Below, piece after piece: positions 6,926 to 24,906 of a stretch of DNA of 64,000 nt. The stretch's first letter is position 1, and every line of letters starts with the position of its first letter. The position numbers and the translations under genes are program-made. Under the pieces are notes generated by a model. The model had not been told where the DNA came from. It saw only the letters and a program-made list of their open reading frames with translations, and ran no database searches. Source of the DNA: Spirochaetota bacterium (GTDB taxonomy: Bacteria > Spirochaetota > UBA4802 > UBA5550); the NCBI GenBank assembly GCA_050298055.1, contig JBNKTL010000005.1, positions 77,104 through 141,103 on the forward strand, given 5' to 3'.

Positions 6926-6958
6926 GCCGGTTAAAAATACTAGAGAGGAGGCTAAAAA

Positions 6959-9163
6959 GTGTCTAAGATAATAGCTTCAGCAGCCATTAGAGGCGCACAT
7001 AAGATAGTCGGCAGAGTCGATGACAAGATAAAAGAGGCCATAGATAAATTCGGCCCAAACCAGGAAGTGGCGTTTCCCAATACAGGTTACTATCTTCCTA
7101 TCATATACGGCATGACAGGGGAAAAGGTGGAGAAGCTCAGTGATATGGAGAAGATCATCGGTATCACCAAAGATCTTCTTCCCGCCCCGGTAAGGGAGAA
7201 AACACATCTTCCCTACCTGGGACCTGTTCTCGATGCGGGTATGGCAACGTTCTTCGCGGAAGAAATGGAAGAAGCCATCAGGTATATTGAGGACCCGAAA
7301 TGCTATGTCCCGGGTGAGGACCCTACGGATGAAAATATCTGGCTCGGTGCGGCGGATGACGTTATCATGAGGAAGAGGGGAGTTGAGTTCGTTGACGGAA
7401 CAGCTCCCGGGTTTGCCGCCATTCTCGGCGGACCGGAAGATCCCGAAGTTGCGGAAAAGATCGCGTTAGAGCTCCAGGAGAAGAACCTCTATGTCTTCAT
7501 GAGTGCTGATTCCGAGGGAAAAAAGATGTCGGAGCAGCTGGTTGAGAGGGGTGTCCAGATAGGATGGCCCACGCGGCTGGTATCCTTCGGACCCAATGTG
7601 GGTTCCGCGGTATTCTCTATCGGTTTCGCCACCCGTGCGGCCATGTCCTTCGGTGGAATTGATCCCGGTGATTACAGAAAGATCCTCATTTACAACAAGG
7701 ACAGGGTTTACGCTTTTGCCATGACTTTCGGGTTTGTCAATGACGAGTGGTACGCCAACGGCGCCGGTTGTATCAACTGGGGATTTCCCGTTATTACGGA
7801 CACGCCCACACCAGAGATCAATCCTACCGGTGTCTGTACATATGAACATGTTGTGGCGAATATTCCTCACGAAGACATCGTACAGAAGTCCATCGAGGTC
7901 AGGGGACTGAAAGTTTCCATCACCAAGGTCCCCGTTCCTGTTTCTTACGGGCCTGCCTTTGAGGGTGAAAGGGTCCGGGGGGACGATATCTTCCTTGAAG
8001 CCGGCGGCGGAAGGACAACTGCCGTAGAACTTGTAACGTCCGCCGAGATGGACCAGGTGACAGACGGAGAGGTAAAGGTTGTGGGGCAGGATATTGGCGA
8101 TCTCGAGGCCGGCGCGAAGATCCCCCTGGCGATCCTTGTTGAGATCGCGGGAAGGCAGATGCAGCCTGACTTTGAGCCGATCCTTGAAAGACAGATCCAC
8201 CACCTTATCAACTACGCCCAGGGAGTCATGCATATCGGGCAGAGGGACATTACGTGGATCAGGCTGAGCAAGAACGCCGTGGAGAAGGGATTTACCCTGA
8301 GACACCTGGGTGATATCCTTCATGCCAAGCTCCACCAGGACTTCGGCAATATCTTTGATAAGGCCCAGGTAACGATCTTTACCGATGAAGCGGAGGTCCA
8401 GAAGATCCTTGAAAAGGCCAGGGGGATATACAGGGTAAGGGACGACAGGGTCGGAAGCATGACAGACGAGGACACGGATCCTTTCTATTCATGTACGCTC
8501 TGCCAGTCATTTGCTCCCAACCACGTATGTGTTGTTACCCCTGAAAGAACAGGGCTCTGCGGCGCGTACAACTGGCTCGACTGTAAAGCGTCATACGAGA
8601 TAAATCCCACAGGGCCCAACCAGCCCATTCTCAAGGGTGAAACGCTTGACGCGGAGTACGGGAAGTGGTCAGGGACCGATGAGTTTGTACTCAAGGCATC
8701 AAGGGGAAATGTCCCCACCGTTGATGCGTACAGTATCATGAGAAATCCCATGACCTCATGCGGGTGCTTCGAATGTATAGCGGCTGTTCTGCCCACATGC
8801 AACGGCATTATGACTGTTGACAGGGACACATCGGCTATGACCCCGTCGGGTATGAAGTTTACAACTCTTGCGGGAACTGTAGGGGGCGGTAACGTGACAC
8901 CGGGATTCCTGGGACACAGTAAGCTCTATATTACAAGTAAGAAGTTTCTCAAGGCGGAGGGAGGACTTCAGCGGCTTGTCTGGATGCCAAAATCTCTTAA
9001 GGAGGAGATCCGGGAGAGGTTTGAGGTCCGCGCAAAGGAGATCGGGATCCCCGACCTTCTTGACAGGATCGCGGACGAGACCGTGGCATCAACCGAGGAA
9101 GAAGTCTACGCTTATATCAGCGAGAAAAAACATCCCGCTCTTGAGATGGATTCACTCTTCTAG
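6959..9163 (+). CDS. acsB: Acetyl-CoA synthase
   Basis: FPNTGYYLP N-domain, CTLCQSFAPNHVC, GLCGA, PMTSCGCFE A-cluster motifs; GTG start. Confidence 0.97.
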   Translation: MSKIIASAAIRGAHKIVGRVDDKIKEAIDKFGPNQEVAFPNTGYYLPIIYGMTGEKVEKLSDMEKIIGITKDLLPAPVREKTHLPYLGPVLDAGMATFFAEEMEEAIRYIEDPKCYVPGEDPTDENIWLGAADDVIMRKRGVEFVDGTAPGFAAILGGPEDPEVAEKIALELQEKNLYVFMSADSEGKKMSEQLVERGVQIGWPTRLVSFGPNVGSAVFSIGFATRAAMSFGGIDPGDYRKILIYNKDRVYAFAMTFGFVNDEWYANGAGCINWGFPVITDTPTPEINPTGVCTYEHVVANIPHEDIVQKSIEVRGLKVSITKVPVPVSYGPAFEGERVRGDDIFLEAGGGRTTAVELVTSAEMDQVTDGEVKVVGQDIGDLEAGAKIPLAILVEIAGRQMQPDFEPILERQIHHLINYAQGVMHIGQRDITWIRLSKNAVEKGFTLRHLGDILHAKLHQDFGNIFDKAQVTIFTDEAEVQKILEKARGIYRVRDDRVGSMTDEDTDPFYSCTLCQSFAPNHVCVVTPERTGLCGAYNWLDCKASYEINPTGPNQPILKGETLDAEYGKWSGTDEFVLKASRGNVPTVDAYSIMRNPMTSCGCFECIAAVLPTCNGIMTVDRDTSAMTPSGMKFTTLAGTVGGGNVTPGFLGHSKLYITSKKFLKAEGGLQRLVWMPKSLKEEIRERFEVRAKEIGIPDLLDRIADETVASTEEEVYAYISEKKHPALEMDSLF

Positions 9164-9175
9164 ATAATCAGGCAG

Positions 9176-9210
9176 TACCGGGGATGCCGGAAATTAAGGT
9201 ATCCCCGGTA
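9176..9210 (+). terminator. Intergenic stem-loop between acsB and acsC
   Basis: taccggggatgcc/ggtatccccggta 13-bp stem with one G-U pair. Confidence 0.45.
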
Positions 9211-9282
9211 TTGATAAAACCGTAGAGCGGTTATAATGAGAAAAAATAGAAATAAAAGAGAAAAAAAGGAAGGAGATATTAA

Positions 9283-10632
9283 ATGGCACTTACAGGTATA
9301 GAAATCTTCAAGCTTTTACCCAAGACAAACTGCGGTGATTGCGGTGTTCCCACATGTCTCGCGTTTGCAATGAAACTCGCGGCCGGGCAGGCGGAACTTG
9401 CGTCATGCCCCCATGTTTCCGAAGAGTCAAAGGCCAAGCTTGATTCTGCGTCCGCTCCTCCCGTGTTGCCGGTGACAATCGGTACGGGTGACGGGGCATT
9501 CAAGACCGGTGGTGAAACGGTCATGTTCAGGCATGAAAAGACCTTTGTTAATCCCACGGGTATAGCTGTTCTTATAACGGATAAAATGAGCGATGCTGAT
9601 GTGGAGAAGAGGTTAAAGAATTTTGTTGATCTCCAGTATGACCGCGTGGGCATGCTTCTGAAAGCCGATCTCATCGCCGTGAAGTCCGAAACCGGTGATG
9701 CGGGCGCTTTCGAGGCCCTTATTAATAAGGCCAAAGGGACGGCAAATTGCGGACTTATCCTTATGAGCGATAATGCCGATGTCCTGGAGGCAGGGGTTAA
9801 GGCATGTGCTGAAACAAAGCCGCTTATTTATGCTGCCACAAAAGATAATGTTGAGAAAGTCGGAAACATTGCAAAGGAGAACAAGTGTTCCGTTGCGGTG
9901 AAAGGCGCAAATCTTGACGAAGTTATCGAACTGACGGAAAAGCTGGCAGGCATGGGCCTTAAGGAGATCGTCATAGACTCCGGGGCACGTGAGAAGAAGC
10001 AGGCTTTCCGGGACCAGGTAGTCATAAGAAGGGCCGCAATAAAGAACACCTTCAGGGCGCTGGGATATCCCACAATCACATTTCCCTGTGAAATGTCAGA
10101 TGACTTAATGGAAGAAACACTTATCGCTTCCACCTTTATCGCCAAGTATGGGGGAATATGCGTCATGTCCGACCTTGAAGGTCACAGCCTCTTCCCGCTT
10201 CTGGTTGAGAGGATGAACATATTTACCGATCCTCAGAGACCCATGGCCACGGAAGAAGGAATTTATCCCATTAACAATCCCGATGAAAACTCACCGGTTC
10301 TTATCACCACAAATTTCTCTCTTACCTACTTTATTGTTTCCGGTGAGATTGAAGGAAGCAGGATGCCCTGCTGGCTTCTCATCATGGAAAACGAGGGGCT
10401 CTCGGTCCTCACGGCCTGGGCGGCAGGCAAGTTCGTAGCCGATGCCATTGCTCCCTTTGTGAAAAAGAGCGGAATTGCGGATAAGATCAAACATAAATCA
10501 CTGGTGATACCGGGATACGCGGCGACAATCAGCGGGGAACTTGAAGAAGAACTCTCAGACTGGAAAATCGTGATCGGTCCCAGGGAAGCCGCTCATATTC
10601 CCGCGTTCCTTAAGGAATTCAAGCCGGAATAG
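9283..10632 (+). CDS. acsC: Corrinoid Fe-S protein large subunit
   Basis: LPKTNCGDCGVPTCLAFAM, FRHEKTF, TDPQRPM, TTNFSLTY, SVLTAWAAGKF. Confidence 0.97.
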   Translation: MALTGIEIFKLLPKTNCGDCGVPTCLAFAMKLAAGQAELASCPHVSEESKAKLDSASAPPVLPVTIGTGDGAFKTGGETVMFRHEKTFVNPTGIAVLITDKMSDADVEKRLKNFVDLQYDRVGMLLKADLIAVKSETGDAGAFEALINKAKGTANCGLILMSDNADVLEAGVKACAETKPLIYAATKDNVEKVGNIAKENKCSVAVKGANLDEVIELTEKLAGMGLKEIVIDSGAREKKQAFRDQVVIRRAAIKNTFRALGYPTITFPCEMSDDLMEETLIASTFIAKYGGICVMSDLEGHSLFPLLVERMNIFTDPQRPMATEEGIYPINNPDENSPVLITTNFSLTYFIVSGEIEGSRMPCWLLIMENEGLSVLTAWAAGKFVADAIAPFVKKSGIADKIKHKSLVIPGYAATISGELEEELSDWKIVIGPREAAHIPAFLKEFKPE

Positions 10633-10663
10633 TCTATTAGAGTATTACAGAAGGAGGAAATTG

Positions 10664-11551
10664 ATGTCAAAATTTATTCGTATTGGTGAAAACTTAAACG
10701 TCATGTCCAAGGTTCTCGGGCCGGCTATGAAAGAGAGAAATCCCGGCCCTATCCAGGAGATGGTTAAAAAAGAAGCTGAAAAGGGTGTGGATTATATCGA
10801 TCTGAATATCGGCCCCGCGCGGAAAGAGGGTGATAAGCTCATGGACTGGGTGGTCAATACTGTCCAGGAAGTTACGGATATTCCCCTTTCGCTGGATACA
10901 ACAAGCCTTGTTGCCATGGAAGCGGGTCTGAAAGCGGCAAAGAACAAACCGCTTATCAACTCTGTGACCATGCAGTCTGACAGGCTTGTTCCCGGGCTGG
11001 AACTTGCGGCGAAGTACAATGCCGATGTTGTTGCCGTGCTCTGGAGCGACCAGGGAATGCCCCGGGACACCAACGAGCGCGCAATGCACGTGGTTGATTT
11101 CTCTACAAAGGCGGCGGAACTGGGGGTCCCCCTGGAAAATATATGGTTTGATCCCATTGTCTCGCCAATCAGTGTTGAGGTAAACCAGGTCAAGGCATGT
11201 GTTGAGTGTATGGGAATGCTTGCCGATATTGCTCCCGGCTCAAAATCAACCGTGGGCCTTTCAAACGTATCCAACGGTGTTCCCGAGGAGCTTCGGCCAT
11301 GGCTGAATATTACCTATTTGATCATGTTGATGAAAAACGGTCTCTATTCTGCCATCGTTGACGCTTTTGATGATGAAATGACTGCATTTGTATCAGGAGA
11401 GAAACAGAACATTGTGGATCTCGTGAACAGAATGACAGATGGTGAAAAAGTTGATATAAATTCACTGAGCGATGTAGAGAAGAAATTTGCCAAGACAGTG
11501 AAGGTGCTCACAGGTGAGACTCTCTTCTCTGATTCATGGCTTGAGGTTTAA
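10664..11551 (+). CDS. acsE: Methyl-THF:corrinoid Fe-S protein methyltransferase (pterin-binding barrel)
   Basis: IGENLN, IDLNIG, PLSLDT, LINS, GLSNVSNG; follows acsC. Confidence 0.9.
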   Translation: MSKFIRIGENLNVMSKVLGPAMKERNPGPIQEMVKKEAEKGVDYIDLNIGPARKEGDKLMDWVVNTVQEVTDIPLSLDTTSLVAMEAGLKAAKNKPLINSVTMQSDRLVPGLELAAKYNADVVAVLWSDQGMPRDTNERAMHVVDFSTKAAELGVPLENIWFDPIVSPISVEVNQVKACVECMGMLADIAPGSKSTVGLSNVSNGVPEELRPWLNITYLIMLMKNGLYSAIVDAFDDEMTAFVSGEKQNIVDLVNRMTDGEKVDINSLSDVEKKFAKTVKVLTGETLFSDSWLEV

Positions 11552-11703: not shown

Positions 11704-12360
11704 ATGACGACAATAACCGAAGAGATTAAAAAGGAAGAAAAAGCCGAAGGTGCCGTTAAACCGGATACGGCGGAGAGGCCCCGGGCAAAATATACCTACA
11801 GGCTGAATGAGTACAGATCCTTTGCCGGTGAGATTGCCGGTGCCAGCGGTGAGCCCATAAACAGCTGCTACCAGTGTAAGAAGTGTTCCAACGGCTGTCC
11901 CGTTACCTATGCCATGGACTACCAGCCGCACCAGGTAATAAAGATGATGCAGCTGGGACTTGAGGAAAAGGTCCTTTCATCAAAGACCCTGTGGCTCTGT
12001 GCCGCCTGTGAAACATGCGGGACGCGGTGTCCCAATGAGATAAAGCTCGCGGAGATGTTCGATGTCCTCAAACAAAAGGCGGAAAAGTCCGGGTACCGGG
12101 TAGGGCATAAAGAAGCTTCCGTATTACACAAAGTCTTTCTCTCTTCGGTTAAGAAATACGGGCGGGTCCATGAAGTGGGAATGATGAGGCAGTTCATGCT
12201 GAAATCAGGAGGGCTCATGGGGAAGTTGTTCAGCGGGGCCCTTTTCAAAGACGCGATCCTGGGCCTGAAATTTTTCAAGAGGGGCAAACTCTCCCTGTCT
12301 GCCCACAGGATCAAGGGTGTGGATGAAGTAAAAAAAATCTTAAAAGGGGTAGGGAAATAG
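11704..12360 (+). CDS. hdrC: Heterodisulfide reductase subunit C-like Fe-S protein
   Basis: CYQCKKCSNGCP and WLCAACETCGTRCP; precedes hdrB. Confidence 0.9.
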   Translation: MTTITEEIKKEEKAEGAVKPDTAERPRAKYTYRLNEYRSFAGEIAGASGEPINSCYQCKKCSNGCPVTYAMDYQPHQVIKMMQLGLEEKVLSSKTLWLCAACETCGTRCPNEIKLAEMFDVLKQKAEKSGYRVGHKEASVLHKVFLSSVKKYGRVHEVGMMRQFMLKSGGLMGKLFSGALFKDAILGLKFFKRGKLSLSAHRIKGVDEVKKILKGVGK

Positions 12361-12361
12361 T

Positions 12362-13216
12362 ATGAAAGCTTCTTATTATCCCGGCTGTTCCCTGCACGGA
12401 ACGGGACTGGAATATGGCGAATCAACAGAGACAGTGTTTAAAGCTCTCGGAGCGGATCTTGTTGAAATAGATGACTGGAACTGCTGCGGCGCGTCATCGG
12501 GCCACAGTGCCGGTAAGAAAATTGCCGTTGAACTGGCGGGAAGAAATCTTATGCAGGCTGAAAAGAACGGCTTAAAGGACATGGTGGTCCCCTGTTCCGC
12601 GTGCTACCAGAGAACAAAGGTGGCCGAGAATGAAATTGAGAAAGACCCGGAATCTTTCCCCGAAGTGAAATATAACGGTGAACTGAAGGTATGGGACATT
12701 CTCTCATTCCTCAAAGAAGAAGTGGGATTCGATGCCATAAAATCAAGGGTACAGAAAAAACTGGAAGGCCTCAGGGCTGTCTGTTACTACGGCTGCCTTA
12801 CCATGAGGCACCCGGAAATTACGGGAGCAAAGGAATATGAAAATCCAACGAATATGGAGAAGCTCCTCTCTGTTCTCGGTGTGGAGGTGATAGAGTGGTC
12901 CTACAAGACAGACTGCTGCGGGGGCGGACTGGTGCTTTCGAGCCCGGATGTTGTTTTTGACCTCACCGGGAAGCTTTTTACAAAGGCCCGGGAAGCGGGT
13001 GCCCAGTGCCTTGTGACAATATGCCCTCTCTGCCAGGGAAACCTTGACCAGAGACAGGGCGACGCGGGAGCAAAGCTTAAAACAAAGTTTGATCTTCCGG
13101 TGTTCTATATTACCGAGTTGATCGGTCTCGCCCTGGGAGAGAAGGAGACGGAAAAGTGGCTTAAAAGGCACTTTGTTGACCCTGTAAGACTTCTAAAGTC
13201 AAAGGGTCTTTTGTGA
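12362..13216 (+). CDS. hdrB: Heterodisulfide reductase subunit B (two CCG domains)
   Basis: YYPGC, WNCCGA, CSAC, YYGC, DCCGG, CPLCQ. Confidence 0.93.
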   Translation: MKASYYPGCSLHGTGLEYGESTETVFKALGADLVEIDDWNCCGASSGHSAGKKIAVELAGRNLMQAEKNGLKDMVVPCSACYQRTKVAENEIEKDPESFPEVKYNGELKVWDILSFLKEEVGFDAIKSRVQKKLEGLRAVCYYGCLTMRHPEITGAKEYENPTNMEKLLSVLGVEVIEWSYKTDCCGGGLVLSSPDVVFDLTGKLFTKAREAGAQCLVTICPLCQGNLDQRQGDAGAKLKTKFDLPVFYITELIGLALGEKETEKWLKRHFVDPVRLLKSKGLL

Positions 13217-13358
13217 AGGAATAATGAGCTATTTATGAAGCCCCTAACCCCCGGAGGGGGCATAAGAGAGTGTTTGAAAATATCTTGCGCCCCCTGAGGG
13301 GGCTGGGGGGATATGCAGCAGTGTATTTGCATAAATAATTTTAATCAGGACAATAACT

Positions 13359-16300
13359 ATGACTGAAAAAGATAATGTTGTTCAACTGAATGAGAAGACA
13401 GGACCGGGGTCCGGTGTAGGGGCTGTTATGGTGGTCGGCAGCGGTATTGCGGGGATGCAGGCAGCCCTTGATCTTGCTAACAGCGGTTTTAAGGTCTACC
13501 TCATTGAGAGGGACACGGCAATAGGGGGAAAGATGTCGCAGCTTGACAAAACATTCCCAACAAACGACTGCGCAATGTGTGTTATCTCTCCCAAGTTGAT
13601 TGAAGTTGATAAGAACATTAATATAGATATTATCACAAACTCCGAGGTCATGGCTGTCGAGGGAAGTGTGGGAGAATTCGAAATTACCGTGAGGGAACAC
13701 GCGCGGTATGTAGACCTTGACAAGTGTACATCATGCGGCGACTGTCTTAAGGTCTGTCCCATATCCCTGCCCAACGACTACAACCTCAACCTCAATGAGA
13801 AAAACGCCATATACAAAAGATACCCCCAGGGCATCCCCAATGGCTATGCCATTGAAAAGGCGGACAGGGCCCCCTGCGGTCTCACCTGTCCCACGGGGAT
13901 AAACGTGCAGGGGTATGTTGCCCTTGTGGGAGACGGGAAGTTCCGGGAGGCGTATGATCTCATTACCGAAAGGAACCCTTTCCCCTCTGTATGCGGGCGT
14001 GTCTGCCACCATCCCTGTGAGGGAGAGTGTAACAGGGGGGATATTGACGAACCTGTTGCCATCAACAACCTCAAGAGGTTTACCTCTGACTGGGTAAGAA
14101 AGAAGAGGAAAGAGGAAGGATACCAGGTTGAGAAACCGGAAATTGATTCCGGTAAGAAGAAGGTCGCCATCGTGGGCGGCGGGCCGGCAGGTCTTACCGC
14201 GGCCAGGGACCTTGTTCTCGCGGGATACCCGGTTACTGTTTTTGAGGCCCGGGAGAAACTGGGCGGCGCAATGAGATACAGTATTCCCCGGTACAGGCTT
14301 CCCGAAGAGATGCTCGACTGGGACATTAAAAATATCATCGAACTGGGGATCGAGGTTAAAACGGAAACGGCACTGGGAAAGGACTTTACCGTTGAGAGCC
14401 TCATGCAGGGAGAATTTGGGGCCGTATTTCTCGGTATAGGAGCGCGGCTGGGAAGCTCATCACGGGCGAAGGGTGAAGAACTGGAAGGCGTCATGCAGGG
14501 GATCGATTTTCTCCTGGATGTAAGCCGGGGAAAGGACGTGGATGTGAAGGGCGGTGATGTCTTTGTTATCGGCGGAGGTAACACGGCCATCGATGCTTCC
14601 CGGACAGCACTCCGGCTGGGGGCCAAAAGCGTCACCATCGTCTACAGGAGGACCGAGGCTGAGATGCCCGCCCAGGACGAGGAGATCGAGGACGCGAAGG
14701 AAGAGGGGATCAGGATCGAGGTTCTCAATGCCCCTGTTGAATATATCGGCGAAAACGGCAGGCTGAAGAAGGTCAGGCTCCAGAAGATGGAGCTGGGAGA
14801 ACCGGACGAGAGCGGCCGGAGAAGACCGGTGCCCGTTGAAGGAAGTGAATATGAAGTTGATGTTGATTATGTTATTGCCGCCATCGGGCAAAATGTTGAT
14901 ACGGACTGCCTCGACGGCGTGAATACCTCCCGGTGGGGGACCATAGAAGCGGATGAACTGCTTTTGACCACTAACAGGGAGGGAGTGTTTGCCGGCGGAG
15001 ACGCCGTTACGGGACCTGCGTCTGTTGTTGAAGCCATCAACCAGGGACATGAGGCAGCCGAGAGCATCATGAGATTTCTTGAAGGCAGGGACATTGCCCG
15101 GGGCCGGGAAAAGCCGGAACAGGAAATGGCCAAAGTCCCGGAGAACAGGCCTTACTACAGCAGGGAGAGGTATGAGGCCGGGAAGATCCCCGTTGAAGAG
15201 AGAAGGGGGAACTACAATGAAGTGGAACAGACATTTACCGAGGAGATGGCGGTGGATGAGGCCAAACGATGTGTTGCCTGCGGCATCTGCTGCGAGTGTT
15301 TCCAGTGTGTTATTGCCTGCCTTCCCGGGGCGGTGAACCACGACCAGGAGACCGTTGACGTAAAATACAAGGTGGGGTCCCTTGTCCTTGCACCCGGATT
15401 TGATCTCTTTGACGCTTATAAGAAGCCGGAATACGGATACGGAAGGTACCGGAACGTCATTACCTCCATGGAGATGGAGAGGACATTCAGCGCGTCCGGG
15501 CCGTACCAGGGGCATGTGAAACGGCCCTCTGACAAGACCCTGCCGCCGAGAATTGCCTGGCTGCAGTGTGTGGGATCAAGAGACGCGTCCATCGGCCGGG
15601 AATACTGTTCATCGGTCTGCTGTACCTATGCCACAAAGCAGGCCACTCTTGCCAGGGACCACTACAGGGAGAAGGTCAGTGCCACGATTTTTCTCAACGA
15701 TTTAAGAACATTCGGAAAGGGTTTCGAGCGCTACTACAACAACGCCGTGGAGAAGTATGGTGTGAGATATGTAAAGAGCTTTATCTCCACCATTAAGGAA
15801 GTCCCTGAAACGAAGAACCTTTTGATAACGTATATAAATGAAGAGGGTAAGCTCACCGAGGAGGAGTTTGACCTTGTTGTCCTCTCCATGGGGCTTGTTC
15901 CCTCGAAGACATCCCGGGATCTCGCGGAGAGACTGGAGATCGGGCTGAACAAGTACGGATTTGTTGAACCGCAGCCCATGAAGCCGGGAGAAACATCCCG
16001 GGAGGGGATATTCGTGGCAGGGGCCTTTGAGGCGCCCAAGGACATCCCGGAATCGGTCATGAGCGCCAGCAGTGCCGCGGCACTTTCAACGGAGTTTCTC
16101 TCAAAGTCCCGGGGTTCCATGGTAACCGGTAAGGAGTACCCCCCGGAGAAGAAGATAGGCCCTGAAGACGAACCGAGGATAGGGGTGTTTGTCTGTCACT
16201 GCGGAGTGAACATAGCGGGTGTTGTTGATGTCCCCAATGTAGTGGATTATGCCAAAACAATACCCAATGTGGTGCATGTTGAGAACAACCTCTTCACCTG

Positions 16301-17837
16301 CTCAAGCGATACCCAGGAGCATCTGAAAGAGGTCATTGAAGAACATAAGCTCAACAGGGTGGTGGTTGCCTCCTGTTCGCCCAGGACCCATGAACCCCTT
16401 TTCCAGGAGACAATAAGGGACGCCGGTCTCAACAAGTATCTATTCGAGATGGCAAATATCCGGGACCAGTGCTCATGGGTCCACGCCACCGAACCGGACC
16501 ACGCCACCGACAAGGCCAGGGACCTGGTAAGAATGGCCGTATCACGATCAAAAACCCTGGAGTCCCTCTACGAGATGCCCTTTAAAGTGAAACAGAACGC
16601 CCTGATAATCGGGGGGGGTGTTTCCGGTATGACAGCCGCGGTGGGCCTTGCAAAGCAGGGTTTTAAATCAGACCTTGTTGAGATATCGGACAGCCTGGGA
16701 GGCAACGCGCACCATGTTCATTATACACTTGAAGGTGTGGAGCCGGGAGCATATCTCCGGGGACTTATTGATGAAGTCAATTCAAATGACCTGATCAATG
16801 TCCGCCTGAACACGAGTGTTAAGAGGTACACCGGGCACGTTGGAAACTTTACAACGGTTGTGGAAAGCGACGGGAACCAGTTTGAGATTGAACACGGCGC
16901 GTATATTGTCGCCACGGGAGGTGTTGAATATCGGCCCCGCGAATACATGTACGGGGAAAACGAAAATGTTGTAACGCAGGTGGAACTTGAAGAGAGGATC
17001 ACCGGCAGCCCCGAAGTGTTCAAGAGCGTACAAACAATTGTTATGATACAGTGCGTGGGGTCCCGGGACAGCGAACACCCCTACTGCAGCAGGTACTGCT
17101 GTTCCGCCGCGGTGAAAAACGCGCTGAAGCTCAGGGAAATCAACCCGGAGATGAATATCCATGTCCTTTACCGGGACATCCGTACCTACGGATTTAAGGA
17201 ACTCTACTATAAAGAGGCACGGGAGAAGGGGATAAACTTCATTACCTATGACAAAGATATTAAACCGGAAATAAGCAAAGGGACCGGTTCCCCTCTCTCC
17301 GCGGTTGTTTATAATAAGGAGCTTGATGCCGATCTTGAGATCGATGCGGATCTCGTTGTACTCAGCGCCGCAATAAGGCCCCATCCGGAGAGCCACAGGA
17401 TCGTTGAGGCCCTGAAACTCTCAAACGATCCGGACAACTTTTTCCTTGAGGCCCACATGAAGCTGCGGCCCCTGGATTTTGCCAATATCGGCGTCTTCCT
17501 CTGCGGTCTCGCCCATTCGCCAAAGCTCATTGAGGAGAGCATTTCCCAGGCCAAAGGGGCGGTATCCCGGGCCTGCACGGTCCTCTCCCGGGAGGAGATG
17601 ATGGTAGGGGGGATCGTCTCACATGTGGATGCGGACAGGTGCGTGGCCTGTCTTACCTGCATCAGGGTGTGTCCCTATGATGTTCCGGTAATCAACGCGG
17701 AGGGTGTTGCCGAGATATCCGAGGCATCGTGCCAGGGCTGCGGAAACTGCGCGGCAGCCTGTCCCCGGAAGGCCATTGAGGTCTATCACTATAAAGACAG
17801 ACAGATAATCAGCAAATGTGAGGTGCTCTTCGCATAG
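13359..17837 (+). CDS. hdrA: Large HdrA-family flavoprotein (HdrL type) with two HdrA modules and an inserted GltD/NfnB-like NAD(P)H:FAD module
   Basis: LDKTFPTNDC, two QCVGSRD/YCS..CC sets, VFVCHCG, ANIRDQCSWVH; insert carries CGRVCHHPCE, GGGPAG, GGGNTA, YRR, FAGGD. Confidence 0.92.
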   Translation: MTEKDNVVQLNEKTGPGSGVGAVMVVGSGIAGMQAALDLANSGFKVYLIERDTAIGGKMSQLDKTFPTNDCAMCVISPKLIEVDKNINIDIITNSEVMAVEGSVGEFEITVREHARYVDLDKCTSCGDCLKVCPISLPNDYNLNLNEKNAIYKRYPQGIPNGYAIEKADRAPCGLTCPTGINVQGYVALVGDGKFREAYDLITERNPFPSVCGRVCHHPCEGECNRGDIDEPVAINNLKRFTSDWVRKKRKEEGYQVEKPEIDSGKKKVAIVGGGPAGLTAARDLVLAGYPVTVFEAREKLGGAMRYSIPRYRLPEEMLDWDIKNIIELGIEVKTETALGKDFTVESLMQGEFGAVFLGIGARLGSSSRAKGEELEGVMQGIDFLLDVSRGKDVDVKGGDVFVIGGGNTAIDASRTALRLGAKSVTIVYRRTEAEMPAQDEEIEDAKEEGIRIEVLNAPVEYIGENGRLKKVRLQKMELGEPDESGRRRPVPVEGSEYEVDVDYVIAAIGQNVDTDCLDGVNTSRWGTIEADELLLTTNREGVFAGGDAVTGPASVVEAINQGHEAAESIMRFLEGRDIARGREKPEQEMAKVPENRPYYSRERYEAGKIPVEERRGNYNEVEQTFTEEMAVDEAKRCVACGICCECFQCVIACLPGAVNHDQETVDVKYKVGSLVLAPGFDLFDAYKKPEYGYGRYRNVITSMEMERTFSASGPYQGHVKRPSDKTLPPRIAWLQCVGSRDASIGREYCSSVCCTYATKQATLARDHYREKVSATIFLNDLRTFGKGFERYYNNAVEKYGVRYVKSFISTIKEVPETKNLLITYINEEGKLTEEEFDLVVLSMGLVPSKTSRDLAERLEIGLNKYGFVEPQPMKPGETSREGIFVAGAFEAPKDIPESVMSASSAAALSTEFLSKSRGSMVTGKEYPPEKKIGPEDEPRIGVFVCHCGVNIAGVVDVPNVVDYAKTIPNVVHVENNLFTCSSDTQEHLKEVIEEHKLNRVVVASCSPRTHEPLFQETIRDAGLNKYLFEMANIRDQCSWVHATEPDHATDKARDLVRMAVSRSKTLESLYEMPFKVKQNALIIGGGVSGMTAAVGLAKQGFKSDLVEISDSLGGNAHHVHYTLEGVEPGAYLRGLIDEVNSNDLINVRLNTSVKRYTGHVGNFTTVVESDGNQFEIEHGAYIVATGGVEYRPREYMYGENENVVTQVELEERITGSPEVFKSVQTIVMIQCVGSRDSEHPYCSRYCCSAAVKNALKLREINPEMNIHVLYRDIRTYGFKELYYKEAREKGINFITYDKDIKPEISKGTGSPLSAVVYNKELDADLEIDADLVVLSAAIRPHPESHRIVEALKLSNDPDNFFLEAHMKLRPLDFANIGVFLCGLAHSPKLIEESISQAKGAVSRACTVLSREEMMVGGIVSHVDADRCVACLTCIRVCPYDVPVINAEGVAEISEASCQGCGNCAAACPRKAIEVYHYKDRQIISKCEVLFA

Positions 17838-17880
17838 GATGGTGCTGAAATGGATGATAACTTTAATGTTAAAAAGATTG

Positions 17881-17990
17881 GCCACAGAGGTACATTAAGT
17901 TCCAAGTTACGAGTTGAAGACACTGAAAATAAACAAAGAACTTGGAACCTGGAACCTGGAACTCAAAACTCTATTCATAACCTCTGTGGC
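17881..17990. repeat. Palindromic element with 7-mer tandem repeats
   Basis: gccacagaggt/acctctgtggc outer inverted repeat enclosing agttccaagtt and (tggaacc)n. Confidence 0.7.
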
Positions 17991-18050
17991 AGATTTATAA
18001 TTTAGATAATAAATACTGATTATGTTTAATAATTTAAGGAGAATGAGTGA

Positions 18051-18500
18051 ATGAGCACAGATTTTGAACCGAAAATAGCGGCATTTGCCTGTCACTACTG
18101 TTCCTATACGGCGGCGGACCTGGCGGGCTCCATGAGGCTTGACTATCCCTCTACGGTGCGGATCATCAAGCTTCTCTGCACCGGCCGTGTGGATACTATC
18201 CACCTGCTCAAGGCATTCGAAGAAGGCGCTGATGCTGTCTTCGTTGCCGGATGAGAAGAGGGCGACTGCAATTTCCTGGAAGGAAATTATCGAGCGAAAA
18301 ACCGCGTTAAATATACAAAGAAGTTACTTGATGAAATAGGGATTGGCGGAGACCGGCTGGAGATGTACAACATTGGCGCTTCCGAGGGGCCCATGTTTGC
18401 CCAGGCGGTAAAGGAGATGACCGAGAAGGCCAGGGAACTGGGCCCGAGCCCTATTACCAGGAAAAAACACCACGAAGGAGACCAGGGGGACAGAAGATGA
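18051..18500 (+). CDS. mvhD: MvhD-type [2Fe-2S] subunit, selenoprotein (in-frame TGA at 18252-18254), 149 aa
   Basis: FAC..C, LCTGRVD, GADAVFVAG-TGA-EEGDCNFLEGN...ELGPSP; TGA occupies a conserved Cys position; readthrough ends at TGA 18498-18500, overlapping the metV ATG. Confidence 0.92.
18270..18288 (+). promoter_or_regulatory. Putative bacterial SECIS hairpin
   Basis: aatttcct-gga-aggaaatt stem-loop, G-rich loop about 24 nt 3' of the TGA. Confidence 0.65.
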
Positions 18501-19165
18501 TCGTAGCAAATCGAAAACCCATAGAAGAGATAAAAGAGATGCTCTCTCCATACAAAAAGATATTACTTGCCGGGTGCGGGACCTGTGTCAGTGTTTGTAT
18601 GGCCGGGGGTGAAAAAGAGGTGGAGATCCTTGCCAGTGAACTGAGGATGATATCCGAAATGGAAAACAAAGGCTGGGAGATCACCGAAAAGACCCTGCAG
18701 CGCCAGTGCGACAGGGAGTACATTGAACCGTTTAAGGATGATTTTGACGGAGCGGATATCGTCATGTCCATGGCCTGCGGCGTGGGTGTTCAGTATTCGG
18801 CGGAAGTGTTCCCGAAGTCTGTTGTCGTCCCGGCGCTGAATACCACATTCTACGGTACCAACCTGGGTGAGGGTGAGTGGTCCGAACGCTGCGCGGGATG
18901 CGGAGACTGTGTCCTTGACCAGACACTGGGGATCTGCCCCGTTGCCCGGTGCTCCAAGGGGCTCTACAACGGGCCCTGCGGCGGGACCGACAAGGGGAAA
19001 TGCGAGGTGAGCCAGGAGCTTGACTGCGCGTGGTACCTTATCCATGAAAGGATGAAGGAACTGGACAGGCTTGACATGATGGGTAAAATCATCGAGCCCA
19101 GAAGCTGGAGCTCCAGCCTCAACGGGGGACCCAGAACGAGAATCAGGGAGGACTTAAAGAAATGA
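18497..19165 (+). CDS. metV: Methylene-THF reductase Fe-S/Zn subunit
   Basis: GCGTC..VC, RQC, ACGVG, CAGCGDC, CPVARCSKGLYNGPCGG, CAW. Confidence 0.93.
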   Translation: MIVANRKPIEEIKEMLSPYKKILLAGCGTCVSVCMAGGEKEVEILASELRMISEMENKGWEITEKTLQRQCDREYIEPFKDDFDGADIVMSMACGVGVQYSAEVFPKSVVVPALNTTFYGTNLGEGEWSERCAGCGDCVLDQTLGICPVARCSKGLYNGPCGGTDKGKCEVSQELDCAWYLIHERMKELDRLDMMGKIIEPRSWSSSLNGGPRTRIREDLKK

Positions 19166-20094
19166 AATCAGGCAGTAATTTAGAAAAAGTCTTTGCAAAG
19201 GGAGAATTTGCCATAACCGGCGAGCTCGGCCCTCCCAAGGGGAGCGATGTTGAGGAAGTGAAAAAGAAGGCCGGTATGCTCAAGGGGTTCGTTGACGCGG
19301 TCAATATTACTGATAACCAGACTGCGGTGGTGAGGATGTCCAGTATCGCCGCTTCAACCATCTGCCTGCAGGAGGGCCTTGAGCCTGTGATGCAGATGGT
19401 CTGCCGTGACAGGAACAGGATCGCGATGCAGAGTGACATCCTGGGCGCTGCCGCCTTTGGTCTCAGAAATATTCTCTGTCTCAGCGGTGACCACCAGTCA
19501 TTCGGGAACCAGGCCGCCGGCAAAAACGTTTTTGATATAGACTCCATACAGCTCATCAGCACGGTAAAGAGGATGCGGGATGAGAAAAAGCTCCTGAACA
19601 ACGATGATGAACTCATGGGGGGTGCTCCCTTTTTTATCGGGGCGGCGGCGAATCCCTTCGCGGAGCCCTTTGATTACAGGCCCTACAGGCTCAAAAAGAA
19701 GGTCGAGGCGGGCGTGGACTTTATCCAGACGCAGTGCATATACGACATGGATATGTTCAGGGAGTATATGAAAAAGGTCGTTGATATGGGACTTCATGAA
19801 AAATGCAGGATAATGGCGGGTATTACACCCCTGAAGTCCGCGGGTATGACAAAGTATATGGCCAACAGGGTCCCGGGTATCATCATCCCCCAGTCGTATA
19901 TCGACCGGATGAGCGGTGTCCCCAAGGAAGAGGCCGCCGAAGAAGGGATCAAGATCTGTATCGAGCAGATGCACCAGATGAAGGAGATCGAGGGTGTGGC
20001 CGGTATCCACCTCATGGCCATCGAATGGGAGCACCGTTCCGGTGAGATCATCGAGAGGGCGGGTTTCCTCCCGCGGCCGGTTTTTGAGAGTTAG
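19162..20094 (+). CDS. metF: Methylene-THF reductase catalytic subunit
   Basis: ELGPPKG, NITDN, CRDRNRIAMQSD, LSGD, AGVDFIQTQ, GIHLM. Confidence 0.95.
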   Translation: MKSGSNLEKVFAKGEFAITGELGPPKGSDVEEVKKKAGMLKGFVDAVNITDNQTAVVRMSSIAASTICLQEGLEPVMQMVCRDRNRIAMQSDILGAAAFGLRNILCLSGDHQSFGNQAAGKNVFDIDSIQLISTVKRMRDEKKLLNNDDELMGGAPFFIGAAANPFAEPFDYRPYRLKKKVEAGVDFIQTQCIYDMDMFREYMKKVVDMGLHEKCRIMAGITPLKSAGMTKYMANRVPGIIIPQSYIDRMSGVPKEEAAEEGIKICIEQMHQMKEIEGVAGIHLMAIEWEHRSGEIIERAGFLPRPVFES

Positions 20095-20163
20095 AGAGGA
20101 TGTTAAAACAATTTTAATAATATTACGGAAGGCGCGGTTTTAAGACCGCGCCTTTTTTTATAA
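20026..20163 (+). repeat. Direct repeat copy 1: metF 3' end plus terminator
   Basis: 20026-20099 matches 23822-23895 at 71/74 nt; looser similarity continues through the terminator. Confidence 0.92.
20129..20159 (+). terminator. Rho-independent terminator after metF
   Basis: aaggcgcggt...accgcgcctt followed by a T run. Confidence 0.85.
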
Positions 20164-20536
20164 AAAAGTATTAGTATTTAGGAGGAATTTTTCTGTTTTC
20201 CTGTGCTTTTTTGTCAGCTGAAAGTCTCTGAATAAGAAAAAAATTAGTATTAATCTTGACGTTAGTAGTTTTTTTTACTAATTTTATATTTAATAATGAT
20301 GTGATGTGATAGTTTTAGTCGGGAATATATAATTAATCTCTAATACAAACAAAGCAAATTATAATTTCTCGTATATTCTTACTAAGCATTTGTACGTCCT
20401 GTTTAATTTTTGGACACATATGAAAGGACTTTTTTGTATGAAAAGGTCCTAGTTGTGGATACCGGCTTTTTCTTTTTTAAGGCTTTTTGTATTTTAAACG
20501 GGCCTTTGGGTGGAGAAATTTCCTGGGAAAAAATAC

Positions 20537-21052
20537 ATGAAGCTAAATACAAAAATATTTCTCTTTTTGAAAATTTTATTGCATATTTCCTTCCTGACCA
20601 CTGGTACTCTATCGGTTGCAGCAGAAATAAAAGTTAACGATAAAGCACCATACATTACTCTGCGCGATATCAATAACCGGCTGATATTCGGTAAAAATAT
20701 ACTTAAAGAAAAACCTATAATAGCCGGGTTCTTTTTTACTGATTGCCTGCCCTGTAAAAAAGAAATTCCTGAACTTGAACTCCTGAATAAAAAATACAGC
20801 CAAAAAATAAAGATGTTCCTTATTGCGACCGACAAGGAAGGCGCAGATGCGGTTGTTCCCTACATGAAAATGATGAATATTACGATCGACGTACTAATTG
20901 ATAAGTACTCCGATGTAGCGCGGGATTATGGTGTTACAAAATATCCCTCGCTGTTCATAATCGGAAGAAACGGAAAAGTGTTGTATTCATGCTATGGATA
21001 CAAAAAAGACAATATCCGGAATATAGAAAAAATCATCAAAGGCTTGAAGTAG
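20537..21052 (+). CDS. TlpA/ResA-like thioredoxin-fold protein, exported
   Basis: Hydrophobic N-terminus, AP.ITL.D, CLPC CxxC motif, YGV..YP..FII. Confidence 0.85.
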   Translation: MKLNTKIFLFLKILLHISFLTTGTLSVAAEIKVNDKAPYITLRDINNRLIFGKNILKEKPIIAGFFFTDCLPCKKEIPELELLNKKYSQKIKMFLIATDKEGADAVVPYMKMMNITIDVLIDKYSDVARDYGVTKYPSLFIIGRNGKVLYSCYGYKKDNIRNIEKIIKGLK

Positions 21053-21130
21053 AAGGAGTCATTAAACTGTCATTACAAAGAATAACCGGGCATTAAAACA
21101 TATGATTAATCTTATCTATAGAGGAGAGTT

Positions 21131-22159
21131 ATGAAATATAAACATCGATTTATTAGAATAATCGTACTTTTCTGTCTTTTGTTTATATACGATTATGCCT
21201 ATACCGCAACCAGGTCCATATACATAAGGACATTTAACATTGGAAGAGGGTTGTCTAAATCCGATCCCATAGGAGATAGGATAAAAGACTATATCTCGGA
21301 AGTAATAGTCGCGAAGGGCGGTTACACAATCACCTCCGATGATGAGGTCAGGCAGGTCATGGCGCAGGAAGAAGGCCTGATGTCTATGCAGACATGCTAT
21401 GACGATACCTGCGTTAAAAAGCTTATGCAGAGCCTGAGAACGGACCTGATCATTTATGGTGTGGTTTCTCTTGAAGATGGGCGTTATCATGTCACAGCTA
21501 AGATGCTCGATAGAAGAACAGGAACGGTAAAATTGACCAGGGTAAAGTCTCTGGAGTTCAAGGATAAGAATAAACTAAAAATGGCTTCCATAGACCTGGC
21601 AAATTACCTGACAGAAGGTAAAAAAATTGATATGGCACGCTATGATGACGCTTATCAGGCAGTCATCGATGCTTATGAGAAAAAAAACCCTACAGGATTA
21701 TCGGCTTATTTTCTTTATTTTAAACCCTCCAAGGCTCCTTTTAAAACTTATTACGATTCTCTGATGGGCGGAGGACTGGAATATTATTTTAAATTCAATG
21801 ATTACTTATCTTTTGGCCCGGGTATTTATTATGTGACCGGAGACGATACAAGCGGAAACGTAACAGTATCGCTCAATTCATATTCCCTGAGCTGTCGTGC
21901 TGGATATTCTCTGCTCGGCTTTATTTATCCTTACATCGGCATAACAGGCCGTGTCACATGGTATAACGAAAGGGGTTATGATAAAAGCGCGAGCTACACC
22001 GGCTATGGCGGAGATGCCTTTGCCGGATGCTCATTCATTGTATGGCGCACGCTTACAATATGGGCCGACTATTCATTGAGTCTGGTTAAACTGAACGACG
22101 AAGGAAGCACAGATATTAGCGTAAGTGCTATACGCGCAGGGGTAATGTATGGATTTTAA
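21131..22159 (+). CDS. Exported protein with probable C-terminal outer-membrane beta-barrel
   Basis: Signal peptide, alpha/beta N-domain with a CxxxxC pair, alternating aromatic strands ending in YGF. Confidence 0.6.
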   Translation: MKYKHRFIRIIVLFCLLFIYDYAYTATRSIYIRTFNIGRGLSKSDPIGDRIKDYISEVIVAKGGYTITSDDEVRQVMAQEEGLMSMQTCYDDTCVKKLMQSLRTDLIIYGVVSLEDGRYHVTAKMLDRRTGTVKLTRVKSLEFKDKNKLKMASIDLANYLTEGKKIDMARYDDAYQAVIDAYEKKNPTGLSAYFLYFKPSKAPFKTYYDSLMGGGLEYYFKFNDYLSFGPGIYYVTGDDTSGNVTVSLNSYSLSCRAGYSLLGFIYPYIGITGRVTWYNERGYDKSASYTGYGGDAFAGCSFIVWRTLTIWADYSLSLVKLNDEGSTDISVSAIRAGVMYGF

Positions 22160-22205
22160 TCGAAAATAACTTAATTGAATAATTGACTTATCGGAGGCAA
22201 TAAAA

Positions 22206-23723
22206 ATGAAAACAAAAATAAATATAAATATAAATATAGCAATTCCAATACTTTTATGCTTGTTTCTCCTTTTTACGACAAGCTGTGATAGCGGGTCAGC
22301 ATTCGATATTACAAGAGAAGGCCCCCCCTGTGCAGGTTTATGTACTCAATGGGCAAAAACAGTAGTTTCAGGTTCGAACTATTCTTGGTTTGAGTCAGTA
22401 GCAGTAGACAGCAGCGGAAATGTCTATGCTGCAGGTTTTATAAATGGTACTAGTGAGATTAATTTCGGTAATGGCCAGACGGCAACAGGTGTAATTAGTG
22501 GTGATAGTTTACTTCTTGTGAAATATAACTCATCCGGAGTAGCTCAATGGGCAAAGACAGTAACTTCTGGTTCGAACAGTTCTCGGTTTTACTCAGTGGC
22601 CGTCGATAGCAGTGGAAATGTCTATGCTGCAGGTTATATAAATGGCACCACTGCATATGATTTCGGTAATAGCCAGACTGCCACAGGCTCATATAGTGGG
22701 AATAATATTCTTCTTGTAAAATACAACTCATCCGGACTAGCTCAATGGGCAAAGACAGTAGATACAGGTTCGCTCTCTTCTATTTTTTATTCAGTATCAG
22801 TAGATGGCAGCGGAAATGTCTATGCTGCAGGTTATATAAATGGCACCACTGCATATGATTTCGGTAATAGCCAGACTGCCACAGGTTCACATAGTAGTAA
22901 TAATATACTTCTTGTGAAATATAACTCATCCGGTGTGGCTCAATGGGCAAAGACAGTAATTTCAGGTTCGAACTCTTCATGGTTTAGGTCAGTATCAGTG
23001 GACAGCATCGGAAATGTCTATGCTGCCGGTAGTATTTCGGGCACCACTGCATTTGATTTTGGCAATAGCCAGACTGCCACAGGTTCATATAGTAGTAATA
23101 ATATACTTCTTGTGAAATATAACTCATCCGGAGTAGCTCAATGGGCAAAGACGGTAGATTCAAGTTCAAGTTATTCCGAATTTTATTCAGTGGCAGTAGA
23201 CGGCAGCGGAAATGTCTATGCTGCAGGTTATATTGCTGGTACCACTGCATATGATTTCGGCAATAGCCAGACTGCCACAGGTTCATATAGTAGTAATAAT
23301 ATACTTCTTGTGAAATATAACTCATCCGGTGTAACTCAATGGGCAAAGACAGTAACTTCTGGTTCGAACAATTCTCAGTTTCAATCAGTAGTAGTAGACA
23401 GCAGTGGAAATCTCTATGCTGCAGGTTATATAAAGGGCACTGGTGAATTTAATTTAGGCAATGATCAGATTGAAACAGGTACATTTGATGAATTAAATAT
23501 ACTTCTTGTGAAATACAACTCATCCGGCGTAACTCAAAAGGCAAAGACAATATCTTCAGGTTCAGATAGTTCTGTTTTCTTCTCAGTATCAGTAGACAGC
23601 AGTGGAAATGTCTATGCTGCAGGTTATATATATGGCACTACTGAATTTGATTTCGGCGATGATCAGACTGCAACAGGTGCAAATGGCACCAATAATATAA
23701 TTCTTGTAAAATACTCAAATTGA
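22206..23723 (+). CDS. Lipoprotein with seven 66-aa SBBP-like beta-propeller repeats
   Basis: Lipobox-like FTTSC; repeated SVAVDSSGNVYAAGY and LLVKYNSSG..QWAKT. Confidence 0.85.
   Translation: MKTKINININIAIPILLCLFLLFTTSCDSGSAFDITREGPPCAGLCTQWAKTVVSGSNYSWFESVAVDSSGNVYAAGFINGTSEINFGNGQTATGVISGDSLLLVKYNSSGVAQWAKTVTSGSNSSRFYSVAVDSSGNVYAAGYINGTTAYDFGNSQTATGSYSGNNILLVKYNSSGLAQWAKTVDTGSLSSIFYSVSVDGSGNVYAAGYINGTTAYDFGNSQTATGSHSSNNILLVKYNSSGVAQWAKTVISGSNSSWFRSVSVDSIGNVYAAGSISGTTAFDFGNSQTATGSYSSNNILLVKYNSSGVAQWAKTVDSSSSYSEFYSVAVDGSGNVYAAGYIAGTTAYDFGNSQTATGSYSSNNILLVKYNSSGVTQWAKTVTSGSNNSQFQSVVVDSSGNLYAAGYIKGTGEFNLGNDQIETGTFDELNILLVKYNSSGVTQKAKTISSGSDSSVFFSVSVDSSGNVYAAGYIYGTTEFDFGDDQTATGANGTNNIILVKYSN
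22347..23715 (+). repeat. Intragenic tandem repeat, 7 x 198 bp
   Basis: Unit starts at 22347, 22545, 22743, 22941, 23139, 23337, 23535. Confidence 0.95.
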
Positions 23724-23821
23724 GTTTCGCTTTTTTTAAGCATTTTTCTCACATCTGTAATTTCAAATTAAAGCATCAACAGATTTTAGTTGGTGCTTTT
23801 TAACAAGGGTTTTCCCTAAGG

Positions 23822-23958
23822 TGGGAGCACCGCTCCGGTGAGATCATCGAGAGGGCGGGTTTTCTCCCGCGGCCGGTGTTTGAGAGTTAGAGAGGCTGTT
23901 TCATCAATTGAGAATGATATCAGAAGGCGCGGTATTGGATCCGCGCCTTTTTTTATAA
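23822..23958 (+). repeat. Direct repeat copy 2: orphan metF 3' fragment (WEHRSGEIIERAGFLPRPVFES*) plus terminator
   Basis: Three differences from metF, all synonymous; followed by aaggcgcgg...ccgcgcctttttttt. Confidence 0.92.
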
Positions 23959-23999
23959 GGGGATTGTGGACTTTTTTAGAGAAGATTACTAAAACAAAA

Positions 24000-24443: not shown

Positions 24444-24559
24444 AAATGGATGAATTGTATCAGCGAAATCAAAAAGTGTTTTACATATTTCCCTGGAAAG
24501 TTAAAATTATTCTTATGTATAGTTGAGTCGTTACAATCAAAGGCTATTGAGGACAGAGT

Positions 24560-24754: not shown

Positions 24755-24756
24755 AC

Positions 24757-24897: not shown

Positions 24898-24906
24898 AAA
24901 TAAACA

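Follow-up and report, generated by a model that had tools for sequence, protein, structure and literature searches.

Which pyridine nucleotide serves a methylene-tetrahydrofolate (methylene-THF) reductase of the Hdr type, nicotinamide adenine dinucleotide (NAD) or its phosphate (NADP)? The carriers and the mechanism of these enzymes have been an open question in the field since 2014, and Mock et al. reportedly described the Moorella HdrCBA-MvhD-MetVF in that year. We examined this question in a 64,000-nucleotide (nt) stretch of DNA from a Spirochaetota bacterium (contig JBNKTL010000005.1, positions 77,104 to 141,103 of the forward strand), which is called the window here and whose own numbering is used. 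The window carries a six-gene hdrCB-hdrL-mvhD-metVF cluster, in which hdrL (13359-17837, + strand), the hdrA of the set, encodes 1492 residues with two HdrA modules and a GltD/NfnB-like module. This hdrL is almost certainly a mosaic: judged by its sequence, a stretch of about 650 nt from the stnC of this same lineage, which belongs to a Stn-like transhydrogenase gene set further downstream, overwrote the matching part of hdrL by gene conversion.

The grafted segment lies at 14372-15018 on the + strand (residues ~339-553), includes all of the Rossmann part that binds NAD(P)H and matches a donor segment of stnC (35447-36090, + strand) with 81% identity over 647 nt of DNA and 88% identity at the protein level. 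Its breakpoints fall at residues 338-346 and 551-555, in motifs common to both parents. Compared with its nearest orthologue, P0003, the HdrL of the window is 81% identical overall, and the main difference is this one 215-residue coenzyme-binding part: identity is only 42% in the graft and 89% in the C-terminal flank. In a sliding comparison with P0003, most windows outside residues ~339-553 were 80-97% identical and those inside about 25-57%, whereas comparison with StnC gave the reverse pattern with a sharp switch. Moreover, 106 informative sites between residues 346 and 551 were StnC-like and 10 orthologue-like, against 4 and 124, respectively, outside this interval, a score that none of 20000 shuffles reached. 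Over the GltD module as a whole, HdrL was 60% identical to the StnC of the same genome but 31-32% to two other GltD-like genes.

Phylogenies supported the same picture. In a tree of the segment (IQ-TREE, 20 rows), the HdrL of the window grouped with its own StnC (support 96/99) inside the StnC clade (100/100), and pairing with P0003 was rejected by the approximately unbiased test (p=1.4e-6). In a tree of the C-terminal flank it paired with P0003 (support 100). When 122 genomes of the order were searched with the segment's DNA, its best match was the stnC of its own genome, followed by stnC orthologues at 70% and 67%; in genomes G019 and G009, the segment was 74% and 66% identical to StnC and 43% and 41% to HdrL. 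In three of three relatives with an acidic coenzyme motif, the same comparison of hdrL with stnC DNA gave no match over 86 nt. StnC itself was 79% identical to its G019 orthologue in the segment and 77% upstream of it. Since StnC thus has no break while the HdrL segment is 88% identical to it, stnC was the donor, at a time after the split from G019. Over 214 codons, synonymous divergence (dS) between graft and stnC was 1.23 and nonsynonymous divergence (dN) 0.069 (dN/dS about 0.06), values that speak for an old event and for purifying selection. The GC content at third codon positions was no marker of the graft (0.63 versus 0.60 and 0.65). In sequencing run X2, a single contig spans both junctions (14159-15488, 1 difference), with the stnC copy on separate contigs, and contigs of run X1 span each junction without differences; X1 is possibly the source of this DNA and X2 comes from the same study, so that the runs are not fully independent. 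Runs X3-X5, of which X5 is RNA, contained small shares, and the stretch as such was found in no RNA run.

The graft bears on coenzyme specificity. Residues Y429-R430-R431 (14643-14651, + strand) have as their counterpart in T. maritima NfnB (4ylf_B) Y310-R311-R312, and they align also to 8oh5_C, in a place where the orthologues have S-L-E: the five closest homologues (67-81% identity) read SLECREEMP and the HdrL of the window reads YRRTEAEMP. The preceding GxGxxA motif (GGGNTA, residue 405) occurs in the xLE class too, so that only YRR discriminates. Papers are cited here by PMC accession. In NfnB, these residues hold the 2'-phosphate of NADP (PMC7596348). DaDsrL-2 was active only with NADP(H), whereas DsrL-1 enzymes with S/T-L..-F/E.. 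prefer NAD(H), according to the passages available (PMC7596348). The Stn of Sporomusa ovata reduced benzyl viologen at 238 U/mg with NADPH versus 0.23 with NADH, a difference of about 1000-fold (PMC7483475). By motif class, then, a YRR (NADP-type) domain took the place of an acidic one (NAD-type, with SLE), and by analogy with the assayed proteins it is likely that HdrL exchanges hydride with NADP(H).

The GltD-like module (residues ~170-655) is inserted in the ferredoxin domain; the ferredoxin-binding domain is thereby interrupted in the N-terminal HdrA module, and it is absent from the C-terminal one. Both HdrA modules are thioredoxin-reductase-like and of the flavin adenine dinucleotide (FAD) type, and the bifurcation signature E356/K409 of PDB entry 5odc aligns to E707/K760 and E1211/K1253, with spacings of 53 and 42 residues (54 and 42 in Moorella). 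HdrL has three GxGxxG-type motifs (residues ~27, 273 and 1085) and 44 Cys residues, whose motifs are compatible, without one-by-one assignment, with the eight [4Fe-4S] clusters predicted in the HdrA of type IV enzymes. Of the solved structures, the S. ovata StnC is one of those nearest to the GltD module, with HdrL K239 aligned to StnC K170 and R313 to R239. The Glu ligand of the bifurcating NfnB-type flavin is absent from this module, which has the StnC-like Lys instead. The StnC flavin with its Lys cluster ligand is non-bifurcating (PMC10482914), and because K239 matches K170 the GltD flavin of HdrL would likewise be a plain hydride port. A single-sequence AlphaFold model of residues 168-583 reached a mean predicted local distance difference test score of 38.9 and was left unused.

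The same insertion site is occupied differently in relatives. In L116 (872-10580, - strand) and L005 (3690-10376), HdrA is in two pieces, and the very place of the GltD module is taken by nuoE, nuoF and a nuoG-hdrA fusion; the order in L116 is hdrC-hdrB-hdrA'-nuoE-nuoF-nuoG/hdrA''-mvhD-metV-metF. G009, the genome of L116, also has a GltD-type cluster, in its acs operon. Several Desulfobacterota have no insert. Because NuoE-NuoF-NuoG takes this place in some relatives and others do without an insert, the site appears to be an interchangeable port, and the GltD insert is most plausibly a port for a pyridine nucleotide. A sequence-only reading of this DNA had described a 1492-residue HdrA with two HdrA modules and a built-in NAD(P)H module, as domain analysis now bears out, and had proposed the insert as the electron entry or exit point, probably for NADP(H), which the NuoEFG arrangement, the YRR motif and the stnC origin support. 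That reading recognised the module but overlooked its copying from the nearby stnC. The insert itself does not set the enzyme apart from that of Moorella, whose HdrA (1487 residues) also carries a GltD insert and uses NADH as electron donor. As a novelty, the insert was accordingly rejected: besides Moorella, at least 8000 homologues were found at E<=1e-100.

We then placed the graft in the HdrL family. Among the best 120 homologues, 60 have YRR, 58 xLE and 2 could not be parsed. All 111 xLE rows formed one clade in a segment tree of 222 rows that included the motif columns (SH, Shimodaira-Hasegawa, support 92). In a flank tree from which the segment was excluded (FastTree, 181 full-length rows), the coenzyme class switches at least 19 times. 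The nearest flank neighbour was of the other class in 23 of the 181 rows, and in these the flank exceeded the segment in identity by a median of 29 points, versus 4.5 in the rest. Segment swaps occur within one motif class as well; in P0025/P0045, both YRR, the flank is 90% and the segment 58% identical. Similar pairs are P0046/P0101, P0063/P0103 and P0092/P0028 (for all four pairs, flank 83-90%, coenzyme segment 49-62%), and in P0092/P0028 the low-identity stretch is the whole GltD module. These data suggest that domain exchange in HdrL is recurrent. The classes are distributed unevenly with respect to metV: among 65 loci with DNA context, counted apart from the window and G033 and including kin that are not independent, HdrLs followed by metV were 39 xLE and 2 YRR, those without metV (21) were 16 YRR and 5 xLE, and 3 lay at a contig edge. 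In the host's order, 26 genomes had a match; with one partial genome left aside, 21 of the 25 HdrL loci are xLE and 4 are YRR. For the YRR-type HdrLs of G034, G033 and G039, the other three such cases, the paralogues that the searches returned included no close donor in the same genome, so that among the YRR cases examined only the genome of the window shows one. A broader proposal, which we offer as a speculation with the odds against it, is that the NAD(P)H sub-domain of HdrL is an exchangeable cassette, repeatedly overwritten in anaerobes from GltD-family paralogues, that resets the thermodynamic bias and hence the direction of the most difficult Wood-Ljungdahl step, the window holding an NADPH-driven version, its donor still present, wired to Stn through one pool. 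If true, the class of the cassette could mark the direction of the pathway at the sequence level, much as the DsrL type partly does for sulfur metabolism.

Our overall reading, which we consider probable, is that of a type IV reductase in which gene conversion from stnC changed the specificity of the pyridine-nucleotide port. The GltD flavin would now exchange hydride with NADP(H) as a plain entry point. The wiring of the ports is taken from methanogenic Hdr, an analogy to which we give an even chance: the bifurcating site would be an HdrA FAD with the E/K signature, MvhD(Sec)-MetV-MetF (Sec, selenocysteine) the mid-potential port (methylene-/methyl-THF, -200 mV), the GltD module in the former ferredoxin site the low-potential port, and HdrCB a candidate third port of high potential, for a carrier such as a quinone. 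An inserted GltD module has been suggested to block or take the ferredoxin site of HdrA (PMC12054007), and a model of menaquinone/NADH confurcation was proposed for Moorella (PMC13391211). A literature value for cellular NADP is -370 mV. In vivo, NADH has a higher potential than NADPH (PMC5861303). By simple arithmetic, the mean potential with menaquinone (-74 mV) is -222 mV for NADP (-370 mV) and -197 mV for NAD (-320 mV, standard), to be set against the -200 mV of methylene-THF. The graft would thus tilt the step toward methylene-THF reduction or, if the enzyme ran in reverse, hand NADPH to Stn, to which it would be linked through a shared NADP(H) pool. The genome further encodes Rnf, two [NiFe] hydrogenases and seven molybdopterin-family matches.

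An older model, in which two NADPH reduce methylene-THF and ferredoxin, would also make the enzyme NADP(H)-linked; we hold it to be unlikely. This reaction was proposed for Moorella (PMC5861303), the E/K pair is kept in both HdrA modules, and the genome has Rnf to use the ferredoxin. Arithmetically, about -540 mV would be within reach of NADPH at -370 mV, versus -440 mV for NADH at standard potential, so that ferredoxin reduction, in which the Moorella NADH enzyme failed, could become feasible through the graft. The Moorella complex, however, did not use ferredoxin (PMC8760232, PMC13391211), and the state of the ferredoxin-binding domains, missing C-terminally and interrupted N-terminally, argues against the model. 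If Stn supplied the NADPH, moreover, the loop would net only NADH and methylene-THF with no gain in ferredoxin, so that coupling to Stn would bring nothing in itself. Somewhat less likely again is that the graft is real but brought no useful change of coenzyme, NADH or both nucleotides being used and conversion by a GltD paralogue being tolerated drift. Swaps without a change of motif class do occur, as in P0025/P0045, and a low dN/dS reflects constraint rather than selection on specificity. However, the YRR proteins that have been assayed show a strong preference for NADP(H), identity of the segment to the StnC domain is 88%, and metV-adjacent HdrLs are mostly of the acidic type (39 of 41, with kin that are not independent).

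Whether MetVF belongs to the complex at all can be questioned too, since the S. ovata MetVF came through purification by itself and could use reduced ferredoxin in vitro (PMC9430772), and since metV is absent beside HdrL in 21 of 65 loci. MetVF would then work apart from HdrCB-HdrL-MvhD, in a loose complex or none, and the NADPH module would serve another reaction. We think this improbable, a little more so than drift, in view of the 4-nt overlaps from mvhD through metV to metF, the hdrL-mvhD-metV synteny that recurs across phyla, the fact that this is the sole metV/metF of the genome, the enrichment of the Moorella complex as a whole (PMC8760232, PMC5861303) and the positive S. ovata pulldowns (PMC9430772). 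As to the mosaic itself, an assembly chimera, a transfer from hdrL to stnC or a foreign origin together seem very improbable to us. A 199-contig assembly and the possible use of X1 as its source would favour a chimera, and a dS of 1.2 is old enough for a close outside donor to be indistinguishable from a resident gene. Against this, the copies differ at 19% of bases, which excludes a collapsed repeat, one X2 contig bridges both junctions with the stnC copy elsewhere, and the segment nests among StnC orthologues (100/100). Misassembly was rejected on the first two of these grounds.

Several observations weigh against a re-specified, bifurcating type IV reductase. The equation of xLE with NAD rests on analogy with DsrL and not on an assayed HdrL, the step from class to coenzyme would weaken sharply if the NADH-using Moorella HdrA has YRR, and NADP(H) use by YRR-type Hdr-MetVF enzymes is a prediction from sequence. 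The methylene-THF reductase of T. phaeum showed no activity with NADPH in the passages available (PMC6895022). NADP-type HdrL is, moreover, common as such and rare only when paired with metVF. Bifurcation by type IV enzymes was never demonstrated, as far as the cited passages go (PMC9430772, PMC8760232, PMC5861303), and Hdr/Mvh was not recovered together with MetVF on purification from S. ovata, though pulldowns were positive (PMC9430772). In a genome that is 98% complete, acetate kinase, [FeFe] hydrogenase and dsrA were not found; these absences misfit a classical reductive acetogen, so that genome content lends the predicted reductive tilt no support. For a menaquinone route, the genome gave only UbiA-family matches.

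The selenocysteine of MvhD was investigated separately. The in-frame TGA of mvhD is codon 68 (18252-18254), and it is flanked by two matches of the Pfam FlpD model (model positions 1-59 before and 62-123 after); at this site, relatives carry either Cys or TGA. Because the model continues across the TGA and the relatives have these codons there, mvhD is one gene with a predicted selenocysteine codon at position 68. A predicted hairpin resembling a selenocysteine insertion sequence (18270-18288, + strand) starts 15 nt after the UGA (-7.8 kcal/mol over a 50-nt stretch), and a tRNA-Sec gene lies on the same contig, next to open reading frames (ORFs) that are presumably selA, selB and selD, labelled from their N-termini only. 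The selenocysteine MvhD of the sequence-only reading thus holds up. It was rejected as a novelty: MvhD with selenocysteine and HdrL were already named in Desulfobacterium autotrophicum HRM2 (PMC2702500), relatives have the TGA, and it occurs in 4 of 25 loci of the order. In L022 and L030, the TGA of mvhD lies at another conserved Cys, in the first motif. Elsewhere in the genome (C22:5893-10499), a NuoF-like gene is followed by the gene of a molybdopterin protein that has a single in-frame TGA and is probably an NAD-linked formate dehydrogenase with selenocysteine.

The cluster is otherwise ordinary. All of its genes are on the + strand: hdrC (11704-12360; 218 residues, 4Fe-4S dicluster, TIGR03290 match below cut-off), hdrB (12362-13216; 284 residues, two CCG domains), hdrL, mvhD (18051-18500; 149 residues, Pfam FlpD), metV (18497-19165; 222 residues, PF12225) and metF (19162-20094; 310 residues, PF02219), with 4-nt ATGA overlaps at mvhD/metV and metV/metF. 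Upstream, also on the + strand, lies a Wood-Ljungdahl cluster (58-11551) of fhs, a cooC-like ATPase gene, folD, acsD, cooS, acsB, acsC and acsE; the fhs ORF starts before the window and runs on upstream along the contig. The presence of hdrC, hdrB and hdrA with mvhD, metV and metF in one cluster corresponds to the type IV (Hdr-type) gene set, and by gene content the six genes are a Moorella-type HdrCBA-MvhD-MetVF methylene-THF reductase of the Wood-Ljungdahl pathway. The places of the six ORFs after the acs genes, the mvhD/metV/metF overlap and the Moorella-type assignment, all given by the sequence-only reading, were confirmed, the last by gene set, order and HdrA build. A genome-wide family search found metV and metF as single copies. 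The three closest loci show 67-73% identity, and other spirochaetes as well as Desulfobacterota and Planctomycetota also have genes in the order hdrL-mvhD-metV. Promoter and terminator scans stayed at chance level (22 vs 20.2 and 25 vs 20.4), and a search for repeats within the operon gave nothing remarkable. Between hdrB and hdrL (13241-13313) lies a ~70-nt GC-rich repeat that resembles a repetitive extragenic palindrome and has 95 other BLAST matches in the genome; a rarer repeat (8 other matches) lies in the hdrL-mvhD gap.

Downstream, the Stn-like genes start 12.2 kb after metF, in agreement with the earlier estimate of about 12 kb: nuoE-like (32277-32723), nuoF-like (32834-34603) and a stnC-like GltD/NuoG fusion (34656-37751; 1031 residues versus 1172 in S. 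ovata), all on the + strand, with 9bov_A, 8oh5_C and 9n5u_A as best PDB matches. Stn beside metVF is known from S. ovata (PMC7483475). Of the coupling to Stn proposed by the sequence-only reading, shared ancestry of the domain stood; the link itself would be a common NADP(H) pool rather than a demonstrated complex. Directly 5' of stnABC (30910-31999) are genes for an Rrf2-family regulator and a 209-residue Cys-rich protein without Pfam or NCBIfam match. The block between metF and stn (20100-28600) is AT-rich (GC 0.36-0.40) and encodes thioredoxin-like, outer-membrane barrel and beta-propeller repeat proteins, a MazE/PIN pair, SMI1/KNR4 and a second CooC-like ATPase; in G009, cooC is directly 3' of metF and stn lies ~14 kb further on. 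Further along, an acyl-CoA dehydrogenase gene is divergent from an etfBA pair (40648-43764), and 46444-55873 carries genes for an exonuclease, two CBS/DUF294 nucleotidyltransferases and a sodium:solute symporter. We take this last region to resemble acetate-permease loci, which would hint at acetate uptake and oxidative use of the pathway. Two other hdrA loci of the genome are an hdrA fragment-mvhD/ferredoxin fusion-hdrC-hdrB, cut by the contig start (C69:1-4906), and hdrA-mvhD followed by [NiFe]-hydrogenase genes (C26:64281-69125).

We finally compared the locus with known systems. The enzyme type is known and the operon itself is ordinary; what is new is the mosaic hdrL with its stnC-derived coenzyme domain. 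Two HdrL coenzyme classes, sub-domain exchange or an NADPH-type type IV reductase were found described nowhere in the literature searched, which covered few subscription papers (further papers cited: PMC5736913, PMC7325909, PMC6085437). The case is a clean natural one of coenzyme specificity moved by gene conversion between two unrelated electron-bifurcating machines, and the HdrL of the window beside P0003 offers a natural test of the insert as a port, of the effect of NADPH on third carrier and direction, and of an NADPH-specific type IV enzyme. With Moorella thermoacetica, the locus shares the order hdrC-hdrB-hdrA-mvhD-metV-metF after acsE and, likened by published description, the HdrA build: 1492 versus 1487 residues, two thioredoxin-reductase-like modules, E/K pairs in both and a GltD NAD(P)H domain (PMC9430772). 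In contrast to the Moorella HdrA, which oxidises NADH (PMC9430772, PMC8760232), the HdrL of the window carries a YRR domain that derives from the stnC of its genome; its MvhD has a predicted selenocysteine and its host is a spirochaete. S. ovata has the same six genes with stnABC downstream of metVF (PMC9430772, PMC7483475, PMC10482914), but in these sources its HdrA (101 kDa) lacks the GltD insert and stn follows metVF directly rather than 12 kb away, while here part of stnC was copied into hdrA. The HdrL of D. autotrophicum HRM2 and Syntrophobacter fumaroxidans is similarly a fusion of HdrA with a glutamate synthase small subunit beside mvhD; it was described as NADH-binding and linked to sulfur metabolism, and the passages available describe neither coenzyme classes nor domain exchange (PMC2702500, PMC5947623). 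In archaeal 'type III' HdrA, GltD likewise sits in the ferredoxin domain and NAD(P)H was proposed to replace ferredoxin; there, nine sequences are predicted NAD-type, MetVF is lacking and the whole domain was inserted, as far as that account goes, in contrast to the sub-domain overwrite seen here (PMC12054007). DsrL-1 and DsrL-2 provide the assayed parallel, with a GltD/NfnB-type domain in S/T-L-x (NAD) and YRR (NADP) forms (PMC7596348, in part). DsrL is part of another enzyme system, however, and its forms follow the main phylogenetic branches, whereas a tree built from the remainder of HdrL shows repeated changes between the two forms.

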